From IMG/VR virus record IMGVR_UViG_2671180378_000015: a stretch of 29,797 nucleotides of DNA, one strand, 5' to 3'. Source of the DNA: a virus. Its lineage: Duplodnaviria > Heunggongvirae > Uroviricota > Caudoviricetes. Both the position numbers and the translations under genes were made by a program. The notes beneath the pieces were generated by a model. The model saw nothing but the letters and a program-made list of their open reading frames with translations, was not told the DNA's origin and did no database searches. Below, one piece after another: positions 1-19,868 of the stretch. Within the stretch, counting starts at the first letter, position 1. Each line of letters opens with the position of its first letter.

Positions 1-1
1 C

Positions 2-1971: not shown

Positions 1972-2040
1972 GAGACCCGGCGGGGGAGAAATCCCTCGCC
2001 ACCTCTGATGTGGCAGGCATCCTCAACGCACCCGCACTTA

Positions 2041-2187: not shown

Positions 2188-2439
2188 ATGATGAACATCG
2201 AAGAACTGCGTAAAATTTTTTGTGAAGATGGCCTCTATGCTGTGTGCGTTGAAAATGGAAATCTTGTTAGTCATTACCGCATTATGTGTTTGCGAAAGAA
2301 TGGGGCTGCGTTAATTAATTTTGTGGATGCTCGGGTCACGGACGGATTTATCTTGCGCGAAGGTGAGTTTGTCACTTCATTACAGGCATTGAAAGAGATC
2401 GGAATAAAAGCTGGCTTTTCTGCTTTTTCAGGAGAATAA
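2188..2439 (+). CDS. rem: Rem-like small prophage protein (83 aa), unknown function
   Basis: ORF track MMNIEELRKIFCEDGLYAVCVENG...; position between hokD and ydfU as in Qin. Confidence 0.65.
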   Translation: MMNIEELRKIFCEDGLYAVCVENGNLVSHYRIMCLRKNGAALINFVDARVTDGFILREGEFVTSLQALKEIGIKAGFSAFSGE

Positions 2440-2505
2440 ACTCATCTACAATCTTGCGCGGGGCTGAACTCCCGCTGAGTAACACCGTGCCACCGGAGAA
2501 AACCG

Positions 2506-2784
2506 ATGGCACGCAACGCAAAATATTACAATTCTGATAATTCGCCCGTTCTTGCCTGCACGCACGGGCGGTATTCTCACGCATTCAAGTCTGAATGGTT
2601 CCAGCACCCTCCATGCACTGCAGAACAGGCCGAATGGCTGATTCATTCTTACCGCAGGCGCGGGTTCGAGGTTAAGAAAGCTCTCAGTCTCGACTATCGG
2701 CACTGGATAATCTCTGTCAGGCTGCCTTATTCCGAACGCCCACCACGTGCGTCCCGCACTTTCCAGCAACGGATCTGGAGGTAA
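2506..2784 (+). CDS. Hypothetical protein (92 aa), translationally coupled to ydfU
   Basis: ATG 2506 preceded by GGAGaaaacc; its stop TAA 2782-2784 lies 1 nt before the GTG start of ydfU and its last codons contain the ydfU RBS (GGAGG 2777-2781). Confidence 0.5.
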   Translation: MARNAKYYNSDNSPVLACTHGRYSHAFKSEWFQHPPCTAEQAEWLIHSYRRRGFEVKKALSLDYRHWIISVRLPYSERPPRASRTFQQRIWR

Positions 2785-2785
2785 C

Positions 2786-3835
2786 GTGCGGGTATTACTT
2801 AGACCTGTTCTGGTGCCTGAGCTTGGGCTGGTGGTCCTTAAGCCGGGCCGTGAATCCATACAGATATTTCATAATCCTCGAGTGCTGGTGGAACCGGAAC
2901 CAAAAAGCATGCGTAATCTGCCATCCGGAGTCGTTCCTGCCGTTCGCCAGCCGCTGGCGGAAGACAAAACATTGCTGCCGTTTTTTAGTAACGAACGGGT
3001 GATTCGTGCTGCTGGCGGCGTTGGCGCATTGTCCGACTGGCTATTACGTCATGTTACATCCTGCCAGTGGCCTAATGGCGATTACCATCACACTGAAACA
3101 GTCATTCACCGTTATGGTACCGGCGCAATGGTGTTGTGCTGGCACTGCGACAACCAACTGCGTGACCAGACATCGGAATCACTGGAGCTGCTTGCTCAAC
3201 AAAATCTGACAGCATGGGTGATTGACGTCATCCGTCACGCAATAAGCGGTACGCAGGAGCGGGAATTATCTTTGGCTGAATTATCCTGGTGGGCGGTCTG
3301 CAATCAGGTGGTGGATGCACTACCTGAGGCTGTATCGCGTCGTTCGCTGGGATTACCAGCGGAAAAAATCTGCTCGGTGTACCGCGAAAGCGACATCGTA
3401 CCGGGAGAGCAGACCGCCACCAGCATATTGAAACAACGCACAAAAAATCTTGCACCGTTGCCTTACGCCCACCAGCAACAAAAATCACCACAGGAAAAGA
3501 CGGTGGTAAGCATCACCGTTGATCCAGAGTCTCCGGAATCTTTCATGAAGCTGCCTAAACGTCGCCGCTGGGTTAAGGAGAAATACACACGTTGGGTTAA
3601 GACACAGCCGTGTGCTTGCTGCGGTATGCCAGCCGACGATCCGCATCATCTGATTGGTCACGGGCAGGGCGGAATGGGAACAAAAGCACATGATCTCTTT
3701 GTGTTGCCTTTGTGCAGAAAGCATCACAACGAGCTGCATACGGATACAGTGGCATTTGAAGATAAGTATGGCTCCCAACTGGAGCTGATATTTCGTTTTA
3801 TCGATCGCGCGCTGGCAATTGGCGTACTGGCGTAA
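2786..3835 (+). CDS. ydfU: YdfU, DUF968-type protein with C-terminal Cys/His-rich HNH-like motif (349 aa from GTG)
   Basis: Open frame 2747-3835; preferred start GTG 2786 with GGAGG 5 nt upstream; C-terminus CACCGMPADDPHHLIGHGQGG...LPLCRKHHNELH resembles an HNH/His-Me finger. Confidence 0.7.
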   Translation: MRVLLRPVLVPELGLVVLKPGRESIQIFHNPRVLVEPEPKSMRNLPSGVVPAVRQPLAEDKTLLPFFSNERVIRAAGGVGALSDWLLRHVTSCQWPNGDYHHTETVIHRYGTGAMVLCWHCDNQLRDQTSESLELLAQQNLTAWVIDVIRHAISGTQERELSLAELSWWAVCNQVVDALPEAVSRRSLGLPAEKICSVYRESDIVPGEQTATSILKQRTKNLAPLPYAHQQQKSPQEKTVVSITVDPESPESFMKLPKRRRWVKEKYTRWVKTQPCACCGMPADDPHHLIGHGQGGMGTKAHDLFVLPLCRKHHNELHTDTVAFEDKYGSQLELIFRFIDRALAIGVLA

Positions 3836-3848
3836 GTGGAGAACGAGC

Positions 3849-4601
3849 ATGAACCTTGAAGCCTTACCAAAATATTACTCCCCAAAATCTCCAAAATTGA
3901 GCGATGACGCTCCAGCGACAGGCACCGGTTGTTTAACAATTACGGATGTAATGGCAGCGCAGGGGATGGTGCAGTCGAAAGCACCACTTGGGTTGGCCTT
4001 ATTTCTGGCAAAAGTTGGTGTTCAGGACCCTCAGTTTGCGATTGAAGGCCTGCTAAATTACGCGATGGCACTGGATAACCCGACATTGAACAAATTGAGT
4101 GAAGAAATCCGGTTACAGATTATTCCTTACCTCGTGAATTTTGCCTTTGCTGATTACTCCAGGTCTGCGGCAAGTAAGGCTCGCTGTGAGCATTGTTCAG
4201 GTACGGGATTTTATAATGTATTGCGCGAAGTGGTGAAACACTACCGACGCGGGGAATCTGTAATCAAGGAAGAATGGGTGAAGGAACTATGTCAGCATTG
4301 CCATGGTAAGGGTGAAGTCAGCACAGCGTGCAGAGGGTGTAAGGGTAAAGGGATTGTTCTGGATGAAAAAAGAACCCGGTTTCATGGCGTACCGGTATAT
4401 AAGATTTGTGGGCGTTGTAATGGAAACCGGTTTAGTCGTTTACCGACCACGCTGGCACGACGTCATGTCCAGAAGCTGGTACCAGACCTGACCGATTATC
4501 AGTGGTATAAGGGGTATGCGGACGTCATTGGTAAACTGGTAACAAAGTGCTGGCAGGAAGAAGCATACGCGGAAGCGCAATTGAGGAAGGTGACGAGATA
4601 A
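3849..4601 (+). CDS. quuQ: Late-gene antiterminator Q (phage-82/21-type, Cys-rich zinc-binding) (250 aa)
   Basis: ORF track; start taken at MNLEALPKYY (ATG 3849); CxxC...CxxC clusters (CEHCSGTG, CQHCHGKG, CRGCKGKG, CGRC); position immediately upstream of a promoter-terminator pair. Confidence 0.85.
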   Translation: MNLEALPKYYSPKSPKLSDDAPATGTGCLTITDVMAAQGMVQSKAPLGLALFLAKVGVQDPQFAIEGLLNYAMALDNPTLNKLSEEIRLQIIPYLVNFAFADYSRSAASKARCEHCSGTGFYNVLREVVKHYRRGESVIKEEWVKELCQHCHGKGEVSTACRGCKGKGIVLDEKRTRFHGVPVYKICGRCNGNRFSRLPTTLARRHVQKLVPDLTDYQWYKGYADVIGKLVTKCWQEEAYAEAQLRKVTR

Positions 4602-4632
4602 ATGATTTTTGCTGAAGATGGCGACATGATGT

Positions 4633-4661
4633 TTGCATTTTTCAAAAAATATGGATAAAAT
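4633..4661 (+). promoter_or_regulatory. Candidate late promoter pR' (Q-modified)
   Basis: TTGCAT (4633-4638) - 17 nt - TAAAAT (4656-4661), about 30 nt downstream of Q stop, followed within 60 nt by a terminator, as expected for a Q-utilisation unit. Confidence 0.45.
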
Positions 4662-4706
4662 TTTTTCAACGATGGGCTTTGTATACCCGACGTTAAGAAA
4701 AAGTAG

Positions 4707-4735
4707 AAAACCCGCTGATGAGCGGGTTTTGTGCT
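4707..4735 (+). terminator. Candidate tR' terminator downstream of late promoter
   Basis: aaaacccgct gatg agcgggtttt stem-loop plus U-tract. Confidence 0.6.
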
Positions 4736-5022
4736 TTAAATGGGGCAATGGTAATGTTGAATCTCATCCCGGGACTCATGTCTGTTAACTTATTATTTAG
4801 CTGGTGACTTGGTTATTTGCCTGATGTTTAAAATGTTTTCTTCCAGTACAATGTCCCTAAACACAATGAGTCTGCTTATTATATTATTAGCAGAGCTATT
4901 ACGGCCAAAGTACAGCATAAGCTTTTAAAGCCAATCAACCAGTCATCAAGACAGACGGGGTTATTCATAAAAACTCTCCATGTGTGATCCGATGGGGCCT
5001 GAAATTAAAGCTTTAATATAGC

Positions 5023-5235
5023 TCATGAAAGGTAAACATTGGCAGCTGAAGGGCCACGCAGACCATTTATCCGGCAAAATTCCACGCGTAATCCGGTGGT
5101 AATTTCTTCTGCATCGCGGAGATTGAGCGCTGAAACATGAAGCTGGACATCGATACGACCATCGGATGGGGTGATAAGACCCTTGCCGCTTTTGCCGTCA
5201 AAGGTTTTGACAATTCCTGTCATTTTACGGGACAA
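5023..5235 (-). CDS. cspF: CspF cold-shock-domain protein paralog (70 aa)
   Basis: ORF track [40 protein letters not shown]...; CSD fold signature. Confidence 0.85.
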
Positions 5236-5339
5236 AAAAATTCCTTAATACTGATAACTTGGCGCACTATACACACGTTCCTGAAGAAAGCTATAGTTTT
5301 TTGATGGGGTTGAAGATGGCTGGATGTCTAAAATAAACA

Positions 5340-5368
5340 TTGCTTCATATGTTCAACTATGCGTTAAT
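5340..5368 (+). promoter_or_regulatory. Candidate cspB promoter with long (about 165 nt) 5' UTR
   Basis: TTGCTT - 17 nt - GTTAAT; the same architecture and an identical ATGCGTTAATG core recur upstream of cspI. Confidence 0.4.
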
Positions 5369-5535
5369 GATTGCGTCGGTTTGAAGAACAGACGATATAC
5401 GAAGTAGTTTACTAAAGCAGTTCTCATTTCAGGTGTTATTCACTTATTCCTTCTTTGAGTCTCTCCAATTAAGTACGAAGTCGTTTCTGTTATGCAAACC
5501 ATTTATGCCGAAAGGCTCAAGTTAAGGAATGTAGA

Positions 5536-5751
5536 ATGTCAAATAAAATGACTGGTTTAGTAAAATGGTTTAACGCTGATAAAGGTTTCGGCTTTATTTC
5601 TCCTGTTGATGGTAGTAAAGATGTGTTTGTGCATTTTTCTGCGATTCAGAATGATAATTATCGAACCTTATTTGAAGGTCAAAAGGTTACCTTCTCTATA
5701 GAGAGAGGTGCTAAAGGTCCTGCAGCAGCAAATGTCATCATTACTGATTAA
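5536..5751 (+). CDS. cspB: CspB cold-shock protein (71 aa)
   Basis: ORF track [38 protein letters not shown]...; RNP1-like KGFGFI motif. Confidence 0.9.
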
Positions 5752-6032
5752 AATTCATCGCTCGTCTGTATACGATAACGAAGAAGGCTGATGCCTGAGT
5801 AGAGATACGGACAGAGTAGTGAATATTGGATCTCTTTAATAAAAAGTAAGGAGGTCCAATACATGAAACAATGGCTAGCATATTTGGCAAAATCTTAATC
5901 AGGAAAAGTATGCTAACCATTGTGGTGAAGTGCAGGTTTGCTGCATGAATAGTTTCACAGCAGAAGCTAACTGCTGGCATCGCAAAACAAAGTGCGTAAG
6001 TGGATGACTCCCACAAAAAGCACCACAATCTC

Positions 6033-6056
6033 AAACCCGCTCAGGCGGGTTTTTTA
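6033..6056 (+). terminator. Rho-independent terminator downstream of cspB (possibly bidirectional)
   Basis: aacccgc tcag gcgggtt followed by tttttt. Confidence 0.6.
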
Positions 6057-6114
6057 TTATCTGCTTTAAATATATTATTAAAATATAAAAAATACTTGTT
6101 ACTAATAAAATCAA

Positions 6115-6285
6115 TCAGGCTACAGCTTTAAGATTTGTCTGGAATACTTTGTTGCAATGAGGGCAGATCAAAAGGGCACCTTTTTGTACTCTTGAAAAAC
6201 TGTGTTCTGACTCTTGGGTGCAGTTTGGGCAGGAACATTTAACGAGATAATTACGGCGTGATTTTGAGTCTTTACGTTCTGACAT
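6115..6285 (-). CDS. Small Cys-rich (putative zinc-ribbon) protein, 56 aa; not in ORF track
   Basis: Hand translation of minus strand: MSERKDSKSRRNYLVKCSCPNCTQESEHSFSRVQKGALLICPHCNKVFQTNLKAVA; RBS AGGAAAAgcct before ATG; two Cys clusters CxCxxC ... CxxC. Confidence 0.45.
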   Translation of the reverse strand: MSERKDSKSRRNYLVKCSCPNCTQESEHSFSRVQKGALLICPHCNKVFQTNLKAVA

Positions 6286-6504
6286 AGGCTTTTCCTGTAT
6301 AATGGCCGTATACAGTACACTAAATATGAAAACATTTCTCGTATTATTATTTTATATATGACTTTCTTTCAAAATAATTACTCACATTTTTAATGTGTAT
6401 GTTTCTTTAGCGCCGTTGAGAACAACGTGTGCTGTCAAAACTACCCCGTAGACTCCGATCTTTTTCAAACATATTGCACCATCCGTGTACATCGGGGTGA
6501 GGAT

Positions 6505-6720
6505 ATGAAATCAATGGATAAGTTAACAACAGGTGTTGCCTATGGCACATCGGCGGGTAATGCTGGTTTCTGGGCATTACAGTTACTCGATAAAGTAACT
6601 CCGTCACAGTGGGCTGCAATCGGTGTGCTGGGTAGCCTGGTTTTTGGCCTGCTGACGTATCTGACAAATCTTTATTTCAAGATTAAAGAAGACAGGCGTA
6701 AGGCTGCGAGAGGAGAGTAA
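6505..6720 (+). CDS. essQ: Phage-21-type class II holin (pinholin) with dual-start MKSM motif (71 aa)
   Basis: [71 protein letters not shown]; two TM segments, charged C-terminus; RBS GGGGTGAGGA before ATG 6505. Confidence 0.85.
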
Positions 6721-6724
6721 TCCA

Positions 6725-7032
6725 ATGACTCAAGACTATGAACTGGTTGTGAAAGGAGTCCGTAATTTTGAGAATAAAGTTACGGTAACTGTAGCCTTAC
6801 AGGACAAGGAACGCTTTGACGGTGAAATTTTTGACCTGGATGTCGCCATGGACCGTGTTGAAGGAGCTGCGCTGGAGTTTTATGAGGCAGCAGCCAGAAG
6901 GAGCGTCCGGCAAGTCTTCCTGGAAGTAGCAGAAAAATTGTCAGAAAAAGTTGAGTCTTATCTGCAGCATCAGTACTCCTTTAAGATTGAAAATCCTGCC
7001 AATAAGCACGAGCGTCCTCATCATAAATATAT

Positions 7033-7036
<4 letters not shown>
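6725..7036 (+). CDS. ydfR: YdfR-like protein (DUF1327), 103 aa
   Basis: ORF track MTQDYELVVKGVRNFENKVTV...; position between holin and endolysin as in Qin. Confidence 0.7.
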
Positions 7037-8060
<1,024 letters not shown>

Positions 8061-8242
8061 GGTAATATTAAATCGGAACATTTACATCGCGGAATGTAAA
8101 ATTTAAATAAAAAGGACTCTTCCATGAGCCAAAATTCCTGAAATCTTAAGGGTAAGATAAAAGGTCTTAATCAGAATGACACGTTTTATTAATAAATAAA
8201 GCTATTCTTTCATTGCTGTGTTTTTCTTTACAAAAGTAATCC

Positions 8243-8271
8243 TTGCTATGGGTGGTTAATCATGCGTTAAT
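8243..8271 (+). promoter_or_regulatory. Candidate cspI promoter with long (about 150 nt) 5' UTR
   Basis: TTGCTA - 17 nt - GTTAAT, containing the same ATGCGTTAATG core as the cspB upstream region. Confidence 0.4.
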
Positions 8272-8422
8272 GGTGTTCTGGTTTGTTACAAATTTATCTG
8301 AAGCAGTCATTGTTATAATTTTATTATTTGTACCTCTTGAGATTTCCTTGTTGGTTTTTCTCTCTGATATTTTTTTTCGGACCATTCTGCCCAAGGGCTA
8401 ATTTCTTCAAAAGGTAATAATT

Positions 8423-8635
8423 ATGTCTAACAAAATGACTGGTTTAGTGAAATGGTTTAACCCTGAAAAAGGTTTTGGTTTCATCACGCCGAAAGATGGC
8501 AGCAAAGATGTGTTTGTCCATTTCTCAGCAATTCAGAGCAACGATTTCAAAACATTAACTGAGAATCAGGAAGTTGAATTTGGTATTGAGAACGGACCTA
8601 AAGGTCCTGCCGCTGTTCATGTAGTGGCGCTTTGA
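8423..8635 (+). CDS. cspI: CspI cold-shock protein (70 aa)
   Basis: ORF track [45 protein letters not shown]... Confidence 0.9.
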
Positions 8636-8834
8636 GGTAGACAATATTACAAACCATATTCACTTTAGATGCCCGTGTTGTCATGGTTCCCAGTATAGAA
8701 CATCATCTTTTGATGTTTCTGACATGAATCCTTTCGGGGCAAAATGTATCTTTTGTAAATCAATGATGATTACATTTGATAATATTTCACAATACTTAAA
8801 TGCCAGCCGTCTGTCGTTGGATTTAAAAAAGTGA
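8625..8834 (+). other. Open frame encoding a second Cys-rich zinc-ribbon-like peptide lacking a canonical start (possible non-canonical start or decayed paralog)
   Basis: Frame reads ...HFRCPCCHGSQYRTSSFDVSDMNPFGAKCIFCKSMMITFDNISQYLNASRLSLDLKK stop 8832-8834; first ATG (8724) lies after the first Cys cluster; strong terminator immediately downstream. Confidence 0.3.
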
Positions 8835-8840
8835 AAATGA

Positions 8841-8864
8841 AGGCTCCTTCGGGAGCTTTTTTGC
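8841..8864 (+). terminator. Rho-independent terminator
   Basis: aggctcc ttcg ggagct followed by tttttt. Confidence 0.65.
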
Positions 8865-8906
8865 TTGGTATCTATTCGATGGATACTCACATACTACGGT
8901 AACATC

Positions 8907-9137
8907 ATGAAAAAAATCATAGTTTTTTTTAACTCTGAACCAGCAGTGGTAGTGCCAGCGATGACTGGAGTTAACACCATCATGCGTGAATATCCAAATG
9001 GCGAAAAAACACACCTTACTGTAATGGCCGCAGGGTTTCCATCTCTGACCGGAGATCATAAAGTCATTTATGTAGCCGCGGATCGACATGTTACTTCAGA
9101 AGAAATTCTGGAAGCAGCAATAAGGCTCTTGAGTTGA
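8907..9137 (+). CDS. Hypothetical small prophage protein (76 aa)
   Basis: ORF track frame 8865-9137; likely start MKKIIVFFNSEPAVVVP at ATG 8907; no recognisable domain. Confidence 0.4.
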   Translation: MKKIIVFFNSEPAVVVPAMTGVNTIMREYPNGEKTHLTVMAAGFPSLTGDHKVIYVAADRHVTSEEILEAAIRLLS

Positions 9138-9482: not shown

Positions 9483-9633
9483 TGTATTCAATAATAAAAT
9501 TTATCCATAAACCTCGTTTTTTCGGGGTTTTGTTATATTTGAATGGTTCCGAATATCTAAATCACAATTGTTGATGGTTTTTATTAAACCAATGCAGTCC
9601 GGCTCAGGAGTGAGAGAAGCCGGACGTTATGGT

Positions 9634-10044
9634 TTAGCGTGGTAAGATCTGTGTAGTTTTCTGGATGCTTTCAGTAAATAGTAATGAGTTATCAAAGGCA
9701 TAGTAATATCTTTGGTGTTCCTGGATATTTGTAACCCATCGGAAAACTCCTGCTTTAGCAAGATTTTCCCTGTATTGTTGAAATGTGATTTCTTTTGATT
9801 TCAACTTATTATAGGAGGTCTCTATAAGATGTTTGTTTCTGGAGAATTTAACATTTACAACCTTTTTGAGTCCTTTTACTAACACTATGTTGTCGTTTTC
9901 TAACACAATGTGAATATTATCTGTGGCTAAATAGTAAATATAAAGTGAGACATTGTGACGTTTTAGCTCAGAATAAAATAATTCACAGTTTAAATCTTTA
10001 CGCACTTGATCGAATATTTCTTTAAAAATGGCAGCCTGAGCCAT
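9634..10044 (-). CDS. ydfO: YdfO/YbcV-family protein (DUF1398), 136 aa
   Basis: ORF track; start taken at [19 protein letters not shown] (ATG at 10044) with GGAAGG RBS. Confidence 0.7.
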
Positions 10045-10344
10045 TGGTAAACCTTCCATGTGATACGATGGCGCGTAGTTAGCATTATCGTGTTTATTGT
10101 TTCAATCTGGTCTGACCTCTTTGTGTTTTGTTGATGATTTATGTCAAATATTAAGCCTGTTTTTAATGAATAGTGTTGATTGCGTAACAAAATTGAGCCT
10201 TGCTGGCATCCAGGAGGGATATGCAACCGACAGATGTATGTAAGGTCGATGTACTCAAACTTTCATACTTTTCCTCTTTTATGCAGTAAGATTTGAAGTA
10301 ATATTTTAACCGCTAGATGACGAGCAAACGCATGGAGCGACAAA

Positions 10345-10551
10345 ATGAATAAAGAACAATCTGCTGATGAAGTCTCGTTGGATCTGATTCGTGTAAAAAA
10401 TATGCTTAATAGCACCATTTCTATGAGTTACCCGGATGTTGTAATTGCATGTATAGAACATCAGGTGTCTCTGGAAGCATTCAGGGCAATTGAGGCAGCG
10501 TTGGTGAAGCACGATAAGAATTCGAAGGATTATTCCCTGGTGGTTGACTGA
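10345..10551 (+). CDS. Hypothetical small protein (68 aa)
   Basis: ORF track [21 protein letters not shown]...; GGAG 7 nt upstream of ATG. Confidence 0.45.
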
Positions 10552-10571
10552 GCACCATAACTGCTAATCAT

Positions 10572-10739
10572 TCAAACTATTTCACCTGTGACAGAGTCAA
10601 TATCGCATTCTGTCACTGTCAGGCTAATACAGAGCTGCAATTCAACTACTGCAATGTCCTCGTAATTAGGTGAATTTACAATATCGTCCTGTTCGGATGC
10701 CGGTTGCATTGCTGAAGATGAGGCATTTATGGTTCGCAT
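10572..10739 (-). CDS. Hypothetical small acidic protein (55 aa); not in ORF track
   Basis: Hand translation of minus strand MRTINASSSAMQPASEQDDIVNSPNYEDIAVVELQLCISLTVTECDIDSVTGEIV; GAGGGG RBS 6 nt before ATG. Confidence 0.25.
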   Translation of the reverse strand: MRTINASSSAMQPASEQDDIVNSPNYEDIAVVELQLCISLTVTECDIDSVTGEIV

Positions 10740-10876
10740 ATTTTCCCCTCATGCTCGTCAGTCCTGTGCGTAGGAAGAAACAGGACACTCACACTAATTT
10801 GTGTGGGCATGCTGTGATGTCCTTCTGAATTATTCCTATGCCATTATGTAAAGCGCTGTATCAGATGCTCATCACG

Positions 10877-10900
10877 GCTGTCAGGCTGTCAGGCTGTCGG
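10877..10900 (+). repeat. Tandem octamer repeat gctgtcag / gctgtcag / gctgtcgg
   Basis: Three consecutive 8-mers read directly from the sequence, about 30 nt upstream of the putative cosN. Confidence 0.7.
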
Positions 10901-10912
10901 GTCCTCCCGGTG

Positions 10913-10944
10913 GGGGCCCCTGCCACGGGGCGGGAGCGTCGCGG
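10913..10944 (+). other. Putative cos site (cosN core with 12-nt cohesive-end sequence)
   Basis: ACG GGGCGGGAGCGT CGCGG resembles remembered lambda cosN ACG GGGCGGCGACCT CGCGGG; preceded by GGGGCCCC palindrome; lies about 185 nt upstream of the small terminase gene, as in lambda. Confidence 0.45.
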
Positions 10945-11123
10945 AAAAAGGCTAGTTTTTGCATTTCCATGGCGGCGGCAGCATGTTTGGTAATTTATTG
11001 ATAATTAAAAGTTATTTCTCTTTTCACCTGTACAATATTTCTTTCTCCCTGTCATTAGACCAGTTTGCAATTAATTGAAATATATAAATAAACATGATTT
11101 TCACCTGCCAGATGGAGTTGCTT

Positions 11124-11651
11124 ATGTCAAATGTGAGCGGGATCGGTGATGCTTATTACTGGAGTGTTTTTAAAATCGCTGAGGCCTTTGGGCTTCACCG
11201 GGACACAGTAAAAAAACGGCTCCTCGCGGCTAACACTCCTGTGGCTGCGACTGTCAGGGGGAACCCCGTTTACGCCCTGCAGCATGTCGGGCCAGCCCTG
11301 TTTAGTGTGAAGCATGAGGCAGCAGACTCTGTTCATGATCCATCCCGTATGGAGCCGAAAGAGAGAAAGGACTGGTACCAATCTGAAAATGAAAGGATCA
11401 AGCTGGAAAAGGAGCAGCGAAAACTCATCCCCGTTGATGAAGTAGTCATCGTCTATTCGTCCATGAGAAAGGCTGTCGTCCAGGTTCTGGAGACAATTCC
11501 GGATGTTCTTGAACGCGATTGCGCCCTGACTCCTCAGGCCGTCGGCGTTGTACAGCAGGCCATTGATGACCTGCGATACACTCTTCAGGAAAAATCCTAC
11601 GAGGCTTGTGCTGCTGAATTAATTCCTGATGAGGAAGGAGAGAGTCTCTAG
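11124..11651 (+). CDS. Terminase small subunit (Nu1-like, winged-HTH DNA-binding N-terminus)
   Basis: ATG 11124 with GGAG RBS; N-terminal HTH-like IAEAFGLHRDTVKKRLLAANTPV similar to lambda Nu1; immediately upstream of large terminase. Confidence 0.7.
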   Translation: MSNVSGIGDAYYWSVFKIAEAFGLHRDTVKKRLLAANTPVAATVRGNPVYALQHVGPALFSVKHEAADSVHDPSRMEPKERKDWYQSENERIKLEKEQRKLIPVDEVVIVYSSMRKAVVQVLETIPDVLERDCALTPQAVGVVQQAIDDLRYTLQEKSYEACAAELIPDEEGESL

Positions 11652-11659
11652 GAGGAATA

Positions 11660-13759
11660 ATGGGTTTTTCATCAGCCCGAAATTTGGGAAGGGACATATC
11701 GGCAGGATTTTCCCCACCACGTCGCATGCCGATTTCGGAGGCTGTTAAAAAATTCATGCGTGTTCCCAAGGGGGCTGGTAACTCGGTGCCATGGGATCCT
11801 GAACTGACACCCTACATCATTGAGCCCATGAACTGCCTGGCATCGCGTGAATACGATGCGGTGATTTTTGTTGGTCCTGCGCGAACAGGGAAGACCATTG
11901 GTCTGATCGATGGATGGATTGTCTATACCATCGTTTGCGATCCTTCGGACATGCTCGTTGTGCAGATGACCGAAGATAAGGCCCGCGAGCATTCTAAAAA
12001 GCGCCTCGACAGAACGTTCAGAAGCAGTGCGGCGGTAAAGAAAAGAATGAGTCCACGTCGTAACGACAATAATGTCCATGATAAGACGTTCAGGGATGGC
12101 TCGTTCCTTAAAATTGGTTGGCCCTCGGTCAACATTATGTCGTCGTCGGATTACCGGTTTGTCGCCTTAACCGATTACGACCGTTTTCCGGAGAATATCG
12201 ACAGCGAGGGTGATGGTTTCTCCCTGGCCTCAAAACGTACCACCACATTTATGTCCGCTGGGATGACTCTGGTGGAGAGCTCGCCGGGACGTGACATCTG
12301 CGACAGCAAATGGCGACGTAAGTCGCCTCATGAAGCGCCACCGACGACTGGTATTCTTTCCCTTTACAATCGTGGTGACCGCCGCCGCTGGTACTGGTCA
12401 TGTCCGCACTGCGGTGAATATTTTCAGCCAGCCATGGATGCCATGACCGGCTACCGTAATGAACCGGATCCCTTTAAAGCCAGTGAGGCGGCGTATCTAC
12501 TTTGCCCGCACTGCAGCGGCATTATCACTGCGGAGAAAAAGCGTGAGCTCAATAGTGCAGGAGTCTGGTTGCGTGAAGGTCAGGTCATTGATCGTAACGG
12601 CAACGTTTCCGGTGAACCGCGCCGCTCCCGTATCGCCAGTTTCTGGATGGAAGGGCCAGCTGCTGCGTATCAGACCTGGGCGCAACTGGTTTACAAATTA
12701 CTGACTGCAGAACAGGAGTATGAAGCGACAGGAAGCGAAGAAACACTCAGGGCGGTTATCAACACCGACTGGGGATTGCCTTATCTTCCTCGTGCCAGCA
12801 TGGAGCAACGAAAAAGTGAACTGCTTGAGCAGCGGGCAGAGCCAGTTCCTTCCCGCAGTGTGCCGGATGGCGTTAATTTCCTTGTGGCGACAGTGGATGT
12901 GCAGGCGGGACGTCATCGCCGTTTTGTGGTTCAGGTAACGGGCTATGGCAGTCGTGGCGAACGCTGGATTATTGATCGTTACAACATCACGCAGTCATTG
13001 CGCAGTGACTGCGACGGGGAGAGCCAGCGAATTGATCCGGCCAGCTATCCGGAAGACTGGGATGTCCTGCTGACGGATGTTTTTCATAAAAGCTGGCCGC
13101 TGGCCTCCGATCCTTCTCAACAAATGCGACTGATGGCAATGGCGGTGGACTCCGGCGGTGAAGACGGGGTCACTGATAATGCCTATAAATTCTGGCGTCG
13201 TTGCCGTCGTGATGGCCTTGGTAAACGTATTTACCTGTTTAAGGGTGACAGCATCCGGCGCGCAAAACTGATCAGCCGTACATTCCCTGATAACACCGGA
13301 CGAACGGGCCGCCGGGCGCAGGCCGCAGGTGATGTGCCGCTCTGGCTTCTTCAGACGGATGCCCTGAAAGACCGGGTGAATAACGCGTTATGGCGTGACT
13401 CGCCAGGTCCAGGCTATGTGCATTTCCCTGACTGGCTGGGGAGCTGGTTTTACGACGAACTGACGTATGAAGAGCGGAGCAGTGACGGGAAATGGAGTAA
13501 GCCGGGTCGCGGTGCCAACGAAGCTTTTGACCTGATGGTGTATGCCGAGGCTCTGGTCATTCTGCATGGATACGAAAAGATCCGCTGGCCGGATGCACCG
13601 GAGTGGGCGAGCCGGGAGACCTGGCTGGAGTGTGTCCAGGACAGTACCGAACCGTCATCCTCACCGGAACCGGTATCCACGCCTGTTAAAAAACAAAAAC
13701 GGAAGAAAACAGTAACTGACGATGTTAACCCCTGGCTGACTTCCGGAGGATGGTTATGA
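11660..13759 (+). CDS. Terminase large subunit (lambda gpA-like), 699 aa
   Basis: ORF track 699 aa; size and position; RBS AGGAGGAATA before ATG. Confidence 0.85.
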   Translation: MGFSSARNLGRDISAGFSPPRRMPISEAVKKFMRVPKGAGNSVPWDPELTPYIIEPMNCLASREYDAVIFVGPARTGKTIGLIDGWIVYTIVCDPSDMLVVQMTEDKAREHSKKRLDRTFRSSAAVKKRMSPRRNDNNVHDKTFRDGSFLKIGWPSVNIMSSSDYRFVALTDYDRFPENIDSEGDGFSLASKRTTTFMSAGMTLVESSPGRDICDSKWRRKSPHEAPPTTGILSLYNRGDRRRWYWSCPHCGEYFQPAMDAMTGYRNEPDPFKASEAAYLLCPHCSGIITAEKKRELNSAGVWLREGQVIDRNGNVSGEPRRSRIASFWMEGPAAAYQTWAQLVYKLLTAEQEYEATGSEETLRAVINTDWGLPYLPRASMEQRKSELLEQRAEPVPSRSVPDGVNFLVATVDVQAGRHRRFVVQVTGYGSRGERWIIDRYNITQSLRSDCDGESQRIDPASYPEDWDVLLTDVFHKSWPLASDPSQQMRLMAMAVDSGGEDGVTDNAYKFWRRCRRDGLGKRIYLFKGDSIRRAKLISRTFPDNTGRTGRRAQAAGDVPLWLLQTDALKDRVNNALWRDSPGPGYVHFPDWLGSWFYDELTYEERSSDGKWSKPGRGANEAFDLMVYAEALVILHGYEKIRWPDAPEWASRETWLECVQDSTEPSSSPEPVSTPVKKQKRKKTVTDDVNPWLTSGGWL

Positions 13760-13968
13760 ACCAGAATGATATCGAAGCCATGATTCAGCGTTATACGGAA
13801 GCTGAAATGGCGGTGCTGGACGGAAAATCCGTCACCTTTAATGGTCAGCAGATGACCATGGAAAACTTATCTGAGATCCGGCAGGGACGGCAGGAGTGGG
13901 AGCGCCGCCTTGCGGCTCTGATTACACGACGACGGGGGCATCCCGGGTACCGGCTGGCGAGGTTCTGA
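13756..13968 (+). CDS. Head-tail joining protein (gpW-like), about 70 aa
   Basis: Small ORF between terminase and portal; start overlaps terminase stop and its stop overlaps the portal start (TGATG); RRRG motif near C-terminus as in lambda W. Confidence 0.55.
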   Translation: MNQNDIEAMIQRYTEAEMAVLDGKSVTFNGQQMTMENLSEIRQGRQEWERRLAALITRRRGHPGYRLARF

Positions 13969-15476
13969 TGGCAATTCTTGATGATGTGATTGGCGTTTTT
14001 TCACCAGGATGGAAAGCGGCAAGGCTGCGTTCCCGTGCGGTGATCCAGGCTTATGAGGCCGTAAAAACGACGCGGACACACAAAGCCCGACGGGAGAACC
14101 GAACTGCCGACCAGTTAAGCCAGTACGGGGCCGTGTCGTTACGTGAGCAGGCCCGTTACCTTGATAACAACCACGATCTGGTTATTGGTGTATTTGACAA
14201 GCTGGAAGAACGGGTGGTGGGGAAAAACGGGATTATTGTCGAGCCACATCCGGTATTACGCAATGGGGCCATTGCCCGTGACCTGGCTGCGGAGATTCGC
14301 ACCCGATGGAGTGAATGGTCTGTCAGCCCGGAAGTCACCGGGCAGTTTACCCGTCCGATGCTGGAACGTCTGATGCTTCGTACCTGGCTGCGCGATGGTG
14401 AGGTGTTTGCCCAGATGGTTTCCGGGCGCATAAACAGCCTGGCGCCTTCTGCCGGTGTTCATTTCTGGCTGGAGGCGCTCGAGCCGGACTTTATTCCCAT
14501 GACTAGTGATGAGAGCAACAGGCTGAATCAGGGCGTGTTTGTTGATGACTGGGGGCGTCCCGAAAAATATCTGGTGTATAAAAGCCGTCCCGTATCCGGA
14601 CGGCAGATGGAAACCAAAGAAGTGGATGCAGAGCGAATGCTGCATCTTAAATTTGTTCGCCGTCTGCACCAGATGCGCGGGACGTCTTTGTTGTCCGGTG
14701 TGCTGATCCGCCTCAGTGCCCTGAAAGAATATGAAGATTCTGAGCTGACTGCAGCAAGGATCGCCGCTGCTCTGGGGATGTACATCAGGAAAGGCGACGG
14801 GCAGAGCTATGAACCGGATGGTAATGGCAGAAAGGAGAATGAACGTGAGCTTACCATTCAGCCGGGCATTATTTACGACGATCTGAAACCCGGCGAAGAA
14901 ATCGGAATGGTGAAGTCGGATCGCCCCAATCCTAACCTTGAAACTTTTCGTAATGGTCAGTTGCGTGCCGTGGCGGCGGGCAGTCGTCTGAGTTTTTCCA
15001 GTACAGCGCGCAACTATAACGGCACTTACAGCGCCCAGCGTCAGGAGCTGGTTGAATCCACTGATGGCTACCTGATCCTGCAGGACTGGTTTATTGGTGC
15101 CGTCACCCGCCCGATGTATCGTGCATGGCTGAAACAGGCTGTGGCATCCGGTGTTATCAGGCTACCCCGCGATCTTGACCGTTCTTCACTGTATACCGCG
15201 GTGTATTCCGGACCAGTGATGCCGTGGATTGACCCTGTTAAGGAGGCTGAGGCCTGGAAAATCCAGATTCGTGGTGGAGCGGCGACAGAATCAGACTGGG
15301 TACGTGCTGGTGGTCGTAATCCGGATGATGTCAAACGTCGGCGCAAGGCCGAAATTGATGAAAACCGCAAGCTGGATCTGGTATTTGATACCGATCCGGC
15401 CAGTGATAAAGGAGGCAGTAGTGCCGCAACGAAACGACAGGAGCCGCAGCACACCGACGACCAGTCCGAAGAATAA
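13968..15476 (+). CDS. Portal protein (lambda gpB-like), about 502 aa
   Basis: ORF track frame 13896-15476; start taken at ATG 13968 (MAILDDVIGVFSPGW) overlapping W stop; size and position. Confidence 0.8.
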   Translation: MAILDDVIGVFSPGWKAARLRSRAVIQAYEAVKTTRTHKARRENRTADQLSQYGAVSLREQARYLDNNHDLVIGVFDKLEERVVGKNGIIVEPHPVLRNGAIARDLAAEIRTRWSEWSVSPEVTGQFTRPMLERLMLRTWLRDGEVFAQMVSGRINSLAPSAGVHFWLEALEPDFIPMTSDESNRLNQGVFVDDWGRPEKYLVYKSRPVSGRQMETKEVDAERMLHLKFVRRLHQMRGTSLLSGVLIRLSALKEYEDSELTAARIAAALGMYIRKGDGQSYEPDGNGRKENERELTIQPGIIYDDLKPGEEIGMVKSDRPNPNLETFRNGQLRAVAAGSRLSFSSTARNYNGTYSAQRQELVESTDGYLILQDWFIGAVTRPMYRAWLKQAVASGVIRLPRDLDRSSLYTAVYSGPVMPWIDPVKEAEAWKIQIRGGAATESDWVRAGGRNPDDVKRRRKAEIDENRKLDLVFDTDPASDKGGSSAATKRQEPQHTDDQSEE

Positions 15477-15489
15477 TTCCTGGTTCAGG

Positions 15490-17448
15490 ATGCAGGCTGG
15501 TCACCAGAGTGACGCGGATATTTATATTTATGACGAGATTGGTTTCTGGGGTGTTACAGCGAAGCAGTTTATCAGTGATCTGAATGCACTGGGCGATATC
15601 ACCCACATTAATCTCCATATTAATTCACCGGGTGGCGATGTCTTTGAAGGCATCGCCATTTTTAATGCGCTGAAAACACATGGTGCGTCCATTACCGTTT
15701 ATGTCGACGGTGTGGCGGCGTCAATGGCGTCGGTCATTGCGATGGTAGGAAACCCGGTCATTATGCCGGAAAACTCCTTCATGATGATTCATAAACCATT
15801 TGGCTTTACGGGCGGTGATGCGGAGGACATGCGCACCTATGCCGACCTGCTCGATAAAGTTGAGGCGGTTCTGTTACCCGCTTATGCACAGAAAACCGGG
15901 AAAACCACCGATGAAATTGCTGCCATGCTGGCGGATGAGACCTGGATGTCCGGTGCCGAATGTCTGGCACAGGGATTTGCTGATCAGGTGACACCAGCCG
16001 TTAAGGCAATGGCATGTATTCAGTCAAAACGTACAGAGGAATTTAAAAAGATGCCGGAATCCATTCGAAATATGATTACTCCGCCACGCAACAGTGCTCC
16101 ACGCGTACAGGATGATGGACCTGCAGCCTCCCGGACGCCAGTGCAGGCAGCAGCACCCGTGGTGGATGAAAACAGCATCCGTGCGCAGGTCCTGGCAGAG
16201 CAAAAAGCGCGTGTAAACGGTATTAATGATCTGTTTGCCATGTTTGGCGGGCGTTATCAGTCGTTGCAGGCTCAGTGTCTTGCCGATCCTGAATGTTCGC
16301 TGGAGCAGGCCCGCGAAAAGCTGTTGAACGAGATGGGGCGCGAGTCCACGCCATCCAATAAAAATACCCCGGCTCATATTTATGCCGGTAACGGTAATTT
16401 TGTGGGGGACGGGATCCGCCAGGCGCTGATGGCGCGCGCCGGGTTTGAAAAAACTGAACGTGATAATGTCTACAACGGGATGACCCTGCGTGAATATGCC
16501 CGTATGTCACTGACTGAACGTGGTATTGGTGTTTCCAGTTATAACCCGATGCAGATGGTCGGTGCGGCGTTCACACACAGTACGTCTGACTTCGGTAATA
16601 TTCTGCTGGATGTTGCGAACAAAGCCATTCTGCAGGGCTGGGAAGATGCCCCTGAAACCTATGAACAGTGGACGCGGAAAGGTCAGTTGTCTGATTTTAA
16701 AATTGCCCATCGTGTGGGTATGGGGGGCTTCAGTGCTCTGCGTCAGGTGCGTGAAGGGGCAGAATATAAATACGTCACCACCGGAGATAAACAGGCCACT
16801 ATTGCACTGGCGACCTATGGCGAGCTGTTCAGTATCACCCGTCAGGCCATTATCAATGATGATCTGAATATGCTGACCGATGTCCCGATGAAGCTGGGCC
16901 GTGCGGCGAAATCCACTATTGCCGATCTGGTTTATGCCATTCTGACGTCTAACCCGAAAATCTCCACAGATAATGTAAGTCTGTTCGATAAAGCGAAACA
17001 TGCAAACGTACTGGAGAGCGCGGCAATGGACGTGGCATCGCTGGATAAAGCCCGCCAGTTGATGCGCGTTCAGAAAGAGGGTGAGCGTCATCTGAATATT
17101 CGTCCTGCGTTCGTACTGGTACCGACGGCGATGGAGTCTGTTGCTAACCAGGTCATTCGCTCCTCAAGTGTCAAGGGGGCTGACATTAACGCCGGTATTA
17201 TTAACCCGGTGAAAGATTTTGCGACCGTTATTGCAGAGCCTCGTCTTGATGATAACAGCCAGACCACCTTCTACCTGGCTGCGTCCAAAGGCTCCGATAC
17301 GATTGAAGTGGCTTATCTCAACGGTGTGGATACGCCATATATTGATCAGATGGAGGGCTTCAGTGTGGATGGCGTGACAACGAAAGTGCGTATTGACGCT
17401 GGTGTTGCGCCAGTTGATCACCGCGGCCTGGTGAAATGTACGGCGTAA
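15490..17448 (+). CDS. Prohead protease (ClpP/S14-like) fused to scaffold-like linker and major capsid protein (about 652 aa)
   Basis: N-terminal ClpP-like motifs (INSPGGDVFEGIAIFNAL, VAASMASVIA with catalytic-type Ser); C-terminal 330 aa resembles major capsid proteins; start ATG 15490 just after portal stop. Confidence 0.75.
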   Translation: MQAGHQSDADIYIYDEIGFWGVTAKQFISDLNALGDITHINLHINSPGGDVFEGIAIFNALKTHGASITVYVDGVAASMASVIAMVGNPVIMPENSFMMIHKPFGFTGGDAEDMRTYADLLDKVEAVLLPAYAQKTGKTTDEIAAMLADETWMSGAECLAQGFADQVTPAVKAMACIQSKRTEEFKKMPESIRNMITPPRNSAPRVQDDGPAASRTPVQAAAPVVDENSIRAQVLAEQKARVNGINDLFAMFGGRYQSLQAQCLADPECSLEQAREKLLNEMGRESTPSNKNTPAHIYAGNGNFVGDGIRQALMARAGFEKTERDNVYNGMTLREYARMSLTERGIGVSSYNPMQMVGAAFTHSTSDFGNILLDVANKAILQGWEDAPETYEQWTRKGQLSDFKIAHRVGMGGFSALRQVREGAEYKYVTTGDKQATIALATYGELFSITRQAIINDDLNMLTDVPMKLGRAAKSTIADLVYAILTSNPKISTDNVSLFDKAKHANVLESAAMDVASLDKARQLMRVQKEGERHLNIRPAFVLVPTAMESVANQVIRSSSVKGADINAGIINPVKDFATVIAEPRLDDNSQTTFYLAASKGSDTIEVAYLNGVDTPYIDQMEGFSVDGVTTKVRIDAGVAPVDHRGLVKCTA

Positions 17449-17472
17449 ACGTCGCAGACAACAACTCTGATG

Positions 17473-17520
17473 GCCCGTAAGGGCTTTTTTTGTACCTGAA
17501 ATCAGCCCCTGAACGGGGCT
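17473..17520 (+). promoter_or_regulatory. Two consecutive stem-loops after the capsid gene (attenuator or mRNA-stabilising structure)
   Basis: gccc gtaa gggc plus T7 tract (17473-17491) and agcccc tgaac ggggct (17504-17520). Confidence 0.45.
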
Positions 17521-17534
17521 GTGCGGAGACAGTT

Positions 17535-17858
17535 ATGGCAAAGAATTTTGTAGAAGAAGGAAAAACGGTGGCGATTGTTGCCAGTGCAGCCATCAGCAGC
17601 GGAGATCTGGTGCAGGTGGGGGATGTTTTTGCGGTGGCGCTGACCGATATTCCACAGGGAGAAACAGGCGACGGCATAACCGAAGGTGTGTTTATGCTGC
17701 CTAAGCTGAAAACGGATGACATGAAAACGGGTAAGAAGGTTTATCTGAAGTCAGGAAAAGTTCAGCTGACTAACAGCGGCTCTGAGCCGCTGGTCGGGGT
17801 TGTCTGGGCAGATGCCGGAACCAGTGCAGAAGAAGTGCCGGTAAAACTCAATGTCTGA
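17535..17858 (+). CDS. Small head protein, possibly decoration/cement (DUF2190-like), 107 aa
   Basis: ATG 17535 with GGAG RBS; Gly/Val-rich small protein directly after capsid gene. Confidence 0.45.
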   Translation: MAKNFVEEGKTVAIVASAAISSGDLVQVGDVFAVALTDIPQGETGDGITEGVFMLPKLKTDDMKTGKKVYLKSGKVQLTNSGSEPLVGVVWADAGTSAEEVPVKLNV

Positions 17859-18126
17859 TCCCTTTTCCCGGCTGGCAGCGCGTATGGATGCGATCACGGT
17901 CAGAAAGATGGGAAAGACAGCCTCGATTAATGATGTCGATATGATTGTGATCCCGGGAGAAACACTGGCAGAGCTGAATGCTCTGTCCGGACCTGCGGTC
18001 TCTCTGGTGGTGTTTTCTTCGGGATACCGCCCACGGCGCGGGGATCGCGTTGTTTATGACGGACAACAATGGACGGTCACACGGCATGAACGTTTTAACG
18101 GTAAGCCAATGATCTTTATTGAGTAA
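17851..18126 (+). CDS. Putative head completion / head-tail adaptor protein (91 aa)
   Basis: ORF track; position between capsid module and tail gene Z. Confidence 0.4.
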   Translation: MSDPFSRLAARMDAITVRKMGKTASINDVDMIVIPGETLAELNALSGPAVSLVVFSSGYRPRRGDRVVYDGQQWTVTRHERFNGKPMIFIE

Positions 18127-18137
18127 AGAGGTGTGGG

Positions 18138-18716
18138 ATGAAGGGGCTTGAGAATGCCATCCGCAATCTGAACAGCCTTGATACCCGTATGGTGCCACAG
18201 GCCAGCGCATGGGCGATAAACCGTGTGGCACAGAAAGCGGTCTCGGTTGCCACCCGGCAGGTTGCCGGGAATACCGTTGCGGGAGATAACCAGGTGAAAG
18301 GGATCCCCCTGAAACTGGTACGTCAGCGTGTCCGGGTGTTTAAAGCCAGTCCGTCAGGAAAAATGACGGTCAGGATCCGCGTTAACCGGGGCAATCTGCC
18401 CGCCATTAAGCTGGGGACAGCCCGGGTCAGACTGGCCCGGCGTGGTGGAAAACTGCAGTACCGTGGCAGTGTGCTGAAGGTGGGTAAATATCTTTTCCGG
18501 GATGCGTTTATTCAGCAACTGGCGAATGGTCGCTGGCATGTGATGCGACGTATTGATGGCAAAAATCGTTACCCCATTGATGTGGTGAAAATCCCGCTGT
18601 CCGGATCGCTGACACAGGCATTTGAAGATGCCCGCGACCACATCATTGCTGCGGAAATGCCGAAACAGCTGGGGTATGCACTAAAACAACAACTGAGGTT
18701 ATGGCTGACCCGATGA
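18138..18716 (+). CDS. Tail completion protein (lambda gpZ-like), 192 aa
   Basis: 192 aa, same length and position as lambda Z; RBS AGAGGTGTGGG before ATG. Confidence 0.55.
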   Translation: MKGLENAIRNLNSLDTRMVPQASAWAINRVAQKAVSVATRQVAGNTVAGDNQVKGIPLKLVRQRVRVFKASPSGKMTVRIRVNRGNLPAIKLGTARVRLARRGGKLQYRGSVLKVGKYLFRDAFIQQLANGRWHVMRRIDGKNRYPIDVVKIPLSGSLTQAFEDARDHIIAAEMPKQLGYALKQQLRLWLTR

Positions 18717-19114
18717 ACCGACATACACAAATCCGCCAGGCCGTACTGGCACGCCTTCGGGAACAGTGTGGAGACAGCGCCACGTTTTTTGACGGGCTTC
18801 CGGCATTTATTGATGCGCAGGAACTGCCTGCCGTGGCGGTGTGGCTGAGTGATGCTCAGTACACCGGAAAAATGACGGATGAAGATGACTGGCAGGCTGT
18901 TCTGCATATTGCCGTCTTCATCCGGGCACAGGCACCGGATTCAGAGCTGGATATGTGGATGGAGAGCACCATTTTCCCTGCCCTGAATGATATACCGGCA
19001 CTTTCCGGACTCATCGACACCCTGATCCCACTCGGTTTTAACTATCAACGTGATAATGAGATGGCCACCTGGGCGATGGCGGAAATCACGTACCAGATCA
19101 CGTACACGAATTAA
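18713..19114 (+). CDS. Tail terminator protein (lambda gpU-like), 133 aa
   Basis: ATFFDGLPAFIDAQELPAVAVWLSDAQYTG...DSELDMWMES...IPALSGLI...ITYQITY closely matches remembered lambda gpU; ATGA overlap with Z. Confidence 0.8.
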   Translation: MNRHTQIRQAVLARLREQCGDSATFFDGLPAFIDAQELPAVAVWLSDAQYTGKMTDEDDWQAVLHIAVFIRAQAPDSELDMWMESTIFPALNDIPALSGLIDTLIPLGFNYQRDNEMATWAMAEITYQITYTN

Positions 19115-19124
19115 GGAGGTGGTA

Positions 19125-19868
19125 ATGACCACACCAAATCCACTGGCAAAGACGAAAGGTGCGGGGACGACGTTCTGGATGTATACCGGCAACGGCGATG
19201 CGTTTGCGAACCCTTTGTCGGACACTGACTGGCTGCGTCTTGCGATGGTGAAGGATCTGCAACCTGGCGAAATGACCGCTGATGCAGAAGATGACACTTA
19301 TCTCGATGATGAAGATGCAGACTGGAAAACGACAACCCAGGGGCAGAAATCCGTTGGTGATACTTCGGCGACGCTGGCCTGGCGTCCGGGTGACAGCGGG
19401 CAGAAAAAACTGGTTCAGTTGTTCGACTCCGGTGAAGTCTGCGCGTTTCGTATCAAATATCCCAACGGCACTGTTGATGTTTTCCGTGGCTGGCTGAGCT
19501 CACTGGGTAAAACCATTGCCTCAAAAGACGTGATGACCCGCACTGTGAAAATCAGCGGTGTGGGGCGTCCGTATCTGGCAGAGGAAGGCACTGAAACCGT
19601 GAGCGTTACCGGGCTGACAGTATCACCGGCGTCTGCCAGTGTAAAAGTGGGAGCAACCACCACGCTGACCTTTACAGTAAAACCTGACGGAGCCAGTGAC
19701 AAAGCGATCAGTGTGCATTCGTCAGATCCACAGACTGCCACGGTTACCCTGAACGGACTTGTGGCCACGGTAAAAGGCGTGAAGCAGGGCAGTGTCAGCA
19801 TTGTGGGCATGACCGCTGACGGGAATTTTGTGGCTGTGACTGCGGTGACTGTCAGCGCAGCAGGTTAA
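19125..19868 (+). CDS. Major tail tube protein (lambda gpV-like) with C-terminal Ig-like domain, 247 aa
   Basis: KGAGTTFWMYTGNGDAFANPLSDTDW...YLDDEDADW...PNGTVDVFRGW matches lambda gpV; RBS AAGGAGGTGG before ATG. Confidence 0.85.
   Translation: MTTPNPLAKTKGAGTTFWMYTGNGDAFANPLSDTDWLRLAMVKDLQPGEMTADAEDDTYLDDEDADWKTTTQGQKSVGDTSATLAWRPGDSGQKKLVQLFDSGEVCAFRIKYPNGTVDVFRGWLSSLGKTIASKDVMTRTVKISGVGRPYLAEEGTETVSVTGLTVSPASASVKVGATTTLTFTVKPDGASDKAISVHSSDPQTATVTLNGLVATVKGVKQGSVSIVGMTADGNFVAVTAVTVSAAG

Follow-up and report, generated by a model that had tools for sequence, protein, structure and literature searches.

Does the GC-rich segment at positions 10,913–10,944 of the Caudoviricetes record IMGVR_UViG_2671180378_000015 constitute a site at which phage DNA would be cut for packaging, and if so, which cohesive ends would it yield, which terminase would use it, and could the prophage carrying it still be packaged? 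Here, the whole 29,797-nt stretch of DNA that was analysed is referred to as the window, and all positions refer to it. We conclude with high confidence that window 10899–11123 represents the cos of a lambdoid prophage of the Tritos/cdtI type, residing at the Qin (ydfJ) locus of an E. coli strain of the O26:H11 lineage. The site had been correctly recognised in the original prediction, but it is already known and very common in E. coli.

The cosN core and its composite motif

The segment initially marked includes 12 nt of upstream spacer (GGGGCCCCTGCC), followed by cosN itself, which reads ACGGGGCGGGAGCGTCGCGG. The elements of the GC-rich part of the site and of the block adjoining it are as follows.

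10899–10905, plus strand: cosQ, GGGTCCT, assigned by its match to lambda and by the onset of conservation
10925–10944, plus strand: cosN, ACG/GGGCGGGAGCGT/CGCGG, assigned by its flanks, the composite motif and the ends of the cdtI and Tritos records
10928–10939, plus strand: predicted 12-nt 5' cohesive-end sequence, GGGCGGGAGCGT, from comparison with lambda and Gifsy-1
10945–10966, plus strand: conserved A5...T5 block, AAAAAGGCTAGTTTTTGCATTT, between cosN and cosB, assigned by conservation

The lambda cosN given in the original prediction agrees with NC_001416, whose ends read ...GGGTCCTTTCCGGTGATCCGACAGGTTACG / GGGCGGCGACCT CGCGGG, that is, ...GGTTACG/GGGCGGCGACCT/CGCGGG. Specifically, the 12-mer of the window is identical to that of lambda at 8 of 12 positions, with positions 1–6 (GGGCGG) all the same, and the four substitutions that had been counted inside it, C>G at position 7, G>A at 8, A>G at 9 and C>G at 11, are all confined to positions 7–12. 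As in lambda, CG dinucleotides flank both predicted nick sites, which would fall at 10927/10928 on the top strand and at 10939/10940 on the bottom strand, and such CG flanks are highly conserved (PMC4669245). The match to Gifsy-1, whose cosN GGGCGGCAGCGT is cited in PMC4669245, is closer still, with cosQ and 11 of 12 overhang positions the same and only position 7 different (C in Gifsy-1, G in the window). Additionally, the site shares with lambda the cosQ GGGTCCT, the frame ACG/GGGCGG...T/CGCGG, the overall layout, the strand of the IHF site and a distance of about 190–196 bp to terS. The cosQ–cosN part has a GC content of 77%, and cosB, the 190 bp before terS, one of 27–30%, as in lambda. 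The placement upstream of the small terminase gene, which had been put at about 185 nt, is likewise borne out: counted from 10928, the first base of the 12-mer, 196 nt separate it from the ATG at 11124 and 184 nt from the ATG at 11112, and the Nu1 start of lambda is at bp 191.

A bare resemblance of this kind could be a chance product of GC-rich sequence with no packaging role, inasmuch as 20-mers with at most 4 mismatches to lambda turn up in 7 of 300 Markov-1 random windows (about 2%). Because a simple local alignment against the lambda cos core scores 14, barely above the best reverse-strand score of 12, it is the composite motif, the context and the conservation that give the similarity its significance. 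The composite motif, GGGTCCT-N(18–26)-ACGGGGCGG-N5-TCGCGG, has a single occurrence in the window and was absent from all 100 shuffles. The site stands directly upstream of terS and terL, GGGCGGGAGCGT is kept in 78 of 80 related IMG/VR loci that carry the same TerS, and the termini of two phage records fall here. Together with the onset of conservation at cosQ, these observations effectively refute a chance resemblance, to which we assign a virtually negligible probability.

cosQ forms the left edge of the packaging module

The 7-bp cosQ lies in the range of about 20–30 bp upstream of cosN, with 22 nt between it and the predicted top-strand nick, compared with 23 nt in lambda and Gifsy-1. The 80 IMG/VR loci with 99–100% identical TerS yield 60 distinct upstream sequences, in which the region of window 10794–10898 is a mosaic and near-invariance sets in at GGGTCC (10899). 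Because conservation begins so sharply at 10899, cosQ delimits the packaging module on its left side. At the other side, the A5...T5 block accompanies cosN across differing cosB/TerS cassettes, and a similar A5...T5-type block occupies the same place in the Cylindrospermopsis phage Cr-LKS3.

Natural variation of cosQ has been described as not apparent (PMC4669245). At the cosQ position, Gifsy-2, Fels-1, PSTCR8lys and the Trabulsiella prophage carry AAAAGGTACTCC and not GGGTCCT, which looks like a natural cosQ variant.

Several minor features are found upstream. Three tandem copies of GGCTGTC(A/G) at 10876–10899 adjoin cosQ; their copy number varies in relatives, and the counterpart in PhiR40_1 is GGCTGTCAGGCTGAC. 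Between the lysis genes and cos lie two small conserved phage ORFs, 10345–10551 (plus strand) and 10572–10739 (minus strand), of the families phrog_657 (YbcW-like) and phrog_4035. A single promoter-like match at 10544–10571 does not rise above shuffle level, and a reading of cos itself as an RNA element or terminator was rejected, the Rfam and terminator scan at cos having returned no match.

Two phage genome records begin at the predicted end

In line with the predicted cleavage position, a megablast search of window 10700–11700 against GenBank phages shows that the records of cdtI (AB285204 / NC_009514) and Tritos (OV696610) have their first base at query position 229, corresponding to window 10928. 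Both records begin with GGGCGGGAGCGTCGCGGAAAAAGG and end at the base corresponding to window 10927, ...CCACG, Tritos with ...CTGCCACG and cdtI with ...GGCCTGCCACG. Tritos is prophage 3 of E. coli LF82, a siphovirus that is released spontaneously and forms plaques on MG1655 hsdR- (PMC9928086). Both phages share the 12-mer, its flanks and cosQ with the window without any difference; the cos–terS interval is 98.7–99% identical, TerS 100% and TerL 99.0–99.4% (99.4% in Tritos). Moreover, 98–99% of window 10928–29797 is collinear with the two genomes at 97–97.5% identity, the late and structural regions at 97–98%. By contrast, the spacer and cosB show a few substitutions, and the early regions and cargo genes are not the same; the window prophage is located at the Qin locus and, in the nearest genome, its int and xis are disrupted by insertion sequences. 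The site is very probably a functional-type cos of the Tritos/cdtI phage group.

How coordinate 1 was chosen bears on the weight of this coincidence. In the literature searched, to which the original cdtI paper (Asakura et al. 2007) and Vahanian et al. 2017 do not belong, no statement on experimental end mapping of cdtI or Tritos was found, and the Tritos paper (PMC9928086) contains no description of it. Coordinate 1 of the two records may have been set by homology to lambda; since no text on its choice was found, we regard the record ends as strong but not experimental evidence for the termini. At least 120 IMG/VR loci contain the 12-mer, and none of the 80 matches listed has it at locus position 1; these are locus and not contig coordinates, most of the UViG identifiers look isolate-derived, and the positions have no bearing on physical ends.

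Taken together, the claim of a lambda-like cosN with a distinct 12-nt sequence is borne out by cosQ, the IHF site, the gpA-type TerL and the ends of the cdtI and Tritos records. It adds little new knowledge, as the start of GGGCGGGAGCGT is already base 1 of these two records. A literature search with the exact 12-mer and its reverse complement returned an unrelated mammalian promoter paper as its sole match.

Length of the cohesive end

The terminase might cut at this site and yet produce an overhang of another length or offset, for example of 9–11 nt. Cr-LKS3 belongs to the same TerS/TerL clade (DUF1441-like TerS 38% and gpA TerL 43% identical), and it is reported to have 5' cohesive ends of 9 nt (PMC9303873). 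In its record these ends fall at the homologous site, ...CG/GGGCTCGCG/CGCGGAAGTCGGCAGTTTTT (CG/GGGC.../CGCGGAA), with GGGTCC upstream; it differs from the window in its 9-nt overhang GGGCTCGCG, its cyanobacterial host and a terS gene 94 nt from the end. Given this reported 9-nt overhang, overhang length varies within this terminase clade. The interval between ACG and CGCGG is 11 nt (GGGCGGGCGGG) in VT1-Sakai, and that between ACG and CGCGGG is 14 nt (GGTGGCTTCGGGCT) in Gifsy-2, from which it also follows that the length may vary in the clade. In the window, however, the spacing and both CG steps are exactly those of lambda and Gifsy-1, and two deposited genomes use precisely these ends. We thus consider a different overhang quite improbable, and GGGCGGGAGCGT is probably the exact 12-nt cohesive end.

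DUF1441-TerS phages with the same layout have other right halves of the 12-mer, namely GGGCGGCGCGCT in mEp043, GGGCGGCGTGCT in PSTCR8lys and GGGCGGCAGCGG in Fels-1. The cos of LLS and mEp213 has been inferred as GGGCGGCGCGCT, citing Vahanian et al. (PMC12315714).

cosB contains a candidate IHF site and candidate TerS-binding elements

Downstream of the A5...T5 block, the AT-rich cosB region (about 10967–11123) contains four recognisable elements.

10970–10986, plus strand: element GGCGGCGGCAGCATGTT at the R3 position, bp 43–59 from the left end, putative first TerS-binding site, assigned by inference only
10991–11003, minus strand: match to the IHF consensus TATCAATAAATTA, bp 64–76 from the left end, candidate I1 site
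11021–11030, plus strand: TTTTCACCTG, first copy of a direct repeat, candidate R-type TerS-binding site
11098–11107, plus strand: TTTTCACCTG, second copy of the repeat, 17 nt upstream of the start codon of terS

Perfect matches to WATCAANNNNTTR in the 29.8-kb window are limited to 10991–11003. The Providencia phage PSTCR8lys has an IHF consensus at bp 64, at the same position and on the same strand, and I1 of lambda, at bp 79–91, is on the same strand as the IHF site of the window. We propose that IHF may act here as at I1.

The window has just two copies of the 10-mer TTTTCACCTG, both of them within cosB and in the same orientation. Relatives carry triplet-repeat elements at the R3 position (CATCATC, CACCACCACCTG and CAGCAGCAGGTG). 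In PSTCR8lys and the Trabulsiella prophage, the two closest TerS relatives (PSTCR8lys TerS is 56% identical), CACCT[GC] appears five and four times in cosB, respectively, the background rate being 0.3 per 200 bp. cosB of the window lacks CGTTTCC, the core of the lambda R sequences, and a search of cosB for an inverted R2 in the style of lambda found none. Accordingly, a clear three-fold R3/R2/R1 set like that of lambda was not found; two direct TTTTCACCTG copies and a divergent R3-position element are present, and these are candidate TerS-binding sites.

A gpA-type TerL is paired with a DUF1441 TerS

The genes following cos are arranged as follows.

11124–11651, plus strand: terS, terminase small subunit, 175 aa, DUF1441 / phrog_141, assigned by Pfam and PHROG
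11660–13759, plus strand: terL, terminase large subunit (699 aa) carrying a gpA ATPase and a gpA endonuclease domain, assigned by Pfam, PHROG and BLASTP
13756–15476, plus strand: gpW-like head–tail adaptor (13756–13968) and lambda-family portal (13968–15476), assigned by Pfam and PHROG

As in lambda, a gpA-family TerL is followed by a gpW-like adaptor and a lambda-family portal. TerL matches PF05876 with 269 bits (E 4e-80) and PF20454 with 290 bits (E 2e-86), and BLASTP aligns it to lambda gpA at 24% identity (E 3e-22). Unlike lambda, the window has a TerS of the DUF1441 and not the Phage_Nu1 family, a Gifsy-2-like head module, in which a fused ClpP-protease/capsid gene lies beyond the portal, differences at overhang positions 7, 8, 9 and 11, a spacer of 22 instead of 23 nt, and no CGTTTCC. 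Gifsy-1 likewise differs in possessing a Nu1/phage-21-type TerS and lambda/21-type head genes.

For TerS, only DUF1441 (PF07278) is matched, Phage_Nu1 (PF07471) giving no match even at E values up to 10, and BLASTP against Nu1 gives no significant similarity. On the other hand, reciprocal PHROG cross-matches connect the two families (window TerS to the Nu1 family phrog_57, E 1e-9; Nu1 to phrog_141, E 6e-8), and the N-terminal helix-turn-helix of TerS aligns with Nu1. Remote homology between the DUF1441 TerS and lambda Nu1 is thereby supported. A search of PDB sequences with TerS gave no meaningful match.

The terS gene has three in-frame ATGs, 11094, 11112 and 11124, only the last of which has a GGAG Shine-Dalgarno sequence (6 nt upstream). 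The cdtI annotation starts the gene at 11112; those of Tritos and RefSeq start it at 11124.

Packaging specificity is assigned to cosB and TerS rather than to the overhang

By analogy with lambda, TerS dimers, assisted by an IHF-induced bend, would bind the AT-rich cosB and bring the gpA-type TerL to the GC-rich cosN, where TerL would nick both strands at the predicted positions, leaving 12-nt 5' overhangs GGGCGGGAGCGT, and packaging would proceed rightward, terminase genes first, until the next cosQ–cosN.

The original prediction also held that the different overhang would limit cross-packaging with lambda, and this part does not stand. A 2017 paper by Vahanian et al. (Virology 509:140) is said to describe natural variation at positions 7–12 of lambda-like cohesive ends. 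The lambda-like phages are defined by 12-base 5' extensions similar to those of lambda (PMC4669245), and cohesive-end differences at bp 7–12 are common among them, N15 differing at 9 and 12 and Gifsy-1 at 8, 9 and 11 (PMC4669245). According to work of the Feiss laboratory, changes at bp 7–12 do not measurably affect cos cleavage, the lambda and N15 terminases have no cosN specificity, and a two-base mismatch between cohesive ends lowers the yield only about four-fold; it is the TerS–cosB interaction that determines packaging specificity (PMC4669245). With specificity lying there, no lambda R core in cosB of the window and a TerS from a different Pfam family, it is the divergent cosB together with the DUF1441 TerS, not the overhang, that forms the barrier to lambda. 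The overhang would come into play only when mixed ends anneal.

One cosQ–cosN block is joined to different cosB/TerS cassettes

The 70-bp cosQ–cosN block is found in 2,088 of 5,426 complete E. coli genomes (about 38%), with up to 7 copies per genome, and the TerS scan of genome contigs returned at least 2 loci. In E. coli prophages, one and the same block, reaching to about bp 39, is combined with no fewer than three distinct cosB/TerS cassettes. Of 77 IMG/VR loci, 22 belong to the Tritos type and 9 to the mEp460 type, and the other 46 fit neither pattern; three of the 46 were inspected, and all three have a TerS of the MDRELKNL type and R3-position sequences of a related family.

The phages PhiR40_1 and mEp460 illustrate a second cassette. 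Their cosQ–cosN is the same as that of the window, GGGCGGGAGCGT included, and together with mEp213, LLS and mEp043 they share its TerL family (78–87% identity) and a DUF1441 TerS. What distinguishes these phages is a TerS only 41–42% identical, a HRQTVAARL helix and CATCATC-type cosB repeats. Along the alignment with PhiR40_1, identity is 75–92% up to 10955 and mostly 65–90% from 11751 on, whereas in 11035–11750 it is mostly about 35–50%, with short stretches of up to about 80% inside terS. The divergent interval thus takes in the larger part of cosB together with terS and roughly the first 30 codons of terL (window 10967–11750, in comparison with PhiR40_1 and the loci L100–L179). Between the cassettes, TerS is about 42% identical, and the recognition helix reads HRDTVKKRL in the window versus HRQTVAARL. 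A modular swap of packaging specificity is known for lambda and phage 21, and the exchange of cosB and TerS observed here is a swap of this style.

In lambda-type termination, cosQ–cosN suffices and cosB is not needed. Termination requiring only the shared block, a terminase that starts at the cos of its own prophage could end packaging at the cos of another prophage resident in the same cell, which we regard as unlikely. If true, hybrid DNA or the chromosomal DNA between two prophages would be packaged, and defective prophages with disrupted int and xis would be mobilised through cos.

The practical use of the site lies in annotation, as RefSeq lists no feature under the cosQ–cosN block. Marking cos together with the type of cosB/TerS cassette would help predict which terminase packages which prophage of pathogenic E. 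coli.

The host prophage and its capacity to be packaged

Window 161–29779 aligns to the chromosome of E. coli O26:H11 strain 11368 (NC_013361) at 99.94% identity, with a single mismatch over 161–29653; 16 of the 17 differences fall in the last roughly 140 nt (29654–29797), in a lom-like gene. Window 1–160 has no match to strain 11368. In other O26-lineage genomes, an IS600 or ISEsa1 transposase lies under the window match, possibly at the 1–160 junction.

An intact cos plus an intact terminase had been taken to mean that the prophage may still be packageable, and this is upheld in part. The cos site, the terminase genes and the structural genes are intact, with head and tail genes collinear. 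In strain 11368, however, IS600 interrupts int, and an IS66-family element, ISCro1, interrupts xis (NC_013361 2164671–2170211); both genes lie outside the window, and their disruption is read from 11368 as the nearest complete genome. Since int and xis are split, self-excision of the 11368 prophage is unlikely, and so is autonomous cos-to-cos packaging.

The site could accordingly be a true cos that is nonetheless a silent relic, the prophage failing to excise and its single chromosomal cos being unproductive unless another prophage helps. In lambda, a DNA molecule must carry two cos sites of like orientation to be packaged through cos. Consistent with a relic are this need for a second cos, the two split genes and an insertion-sequence fragment in the early region, an ISEsa1 transposase fragment at 6877–7947 of the comparison locus L005. 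Against it, the disruption of int and xis is known from 11368 only, and defective lambdoid prophages of O157 Sakai were reportedly mobilised through prophage–prophage interactions (Asadulghani et al. 2009). We hold the chances of a silent and of a usable cos to be evenly balanced.

The Qin-locus prophage carries relBE, hokD, cspB, cspF, cspI, dicB and pinQ. Its Qin-type cargo in the late region (relBE, hokD, cspB, cspF, cspI, ynfN and gnsB) occupies roughly window 1218–9137, and in L005 cargo genes are located at 9519–10272 and 13324–17438. In Tritos, the prophage expresses its homologues of hokD, cspI and cspB at high levels (PMC9928086).
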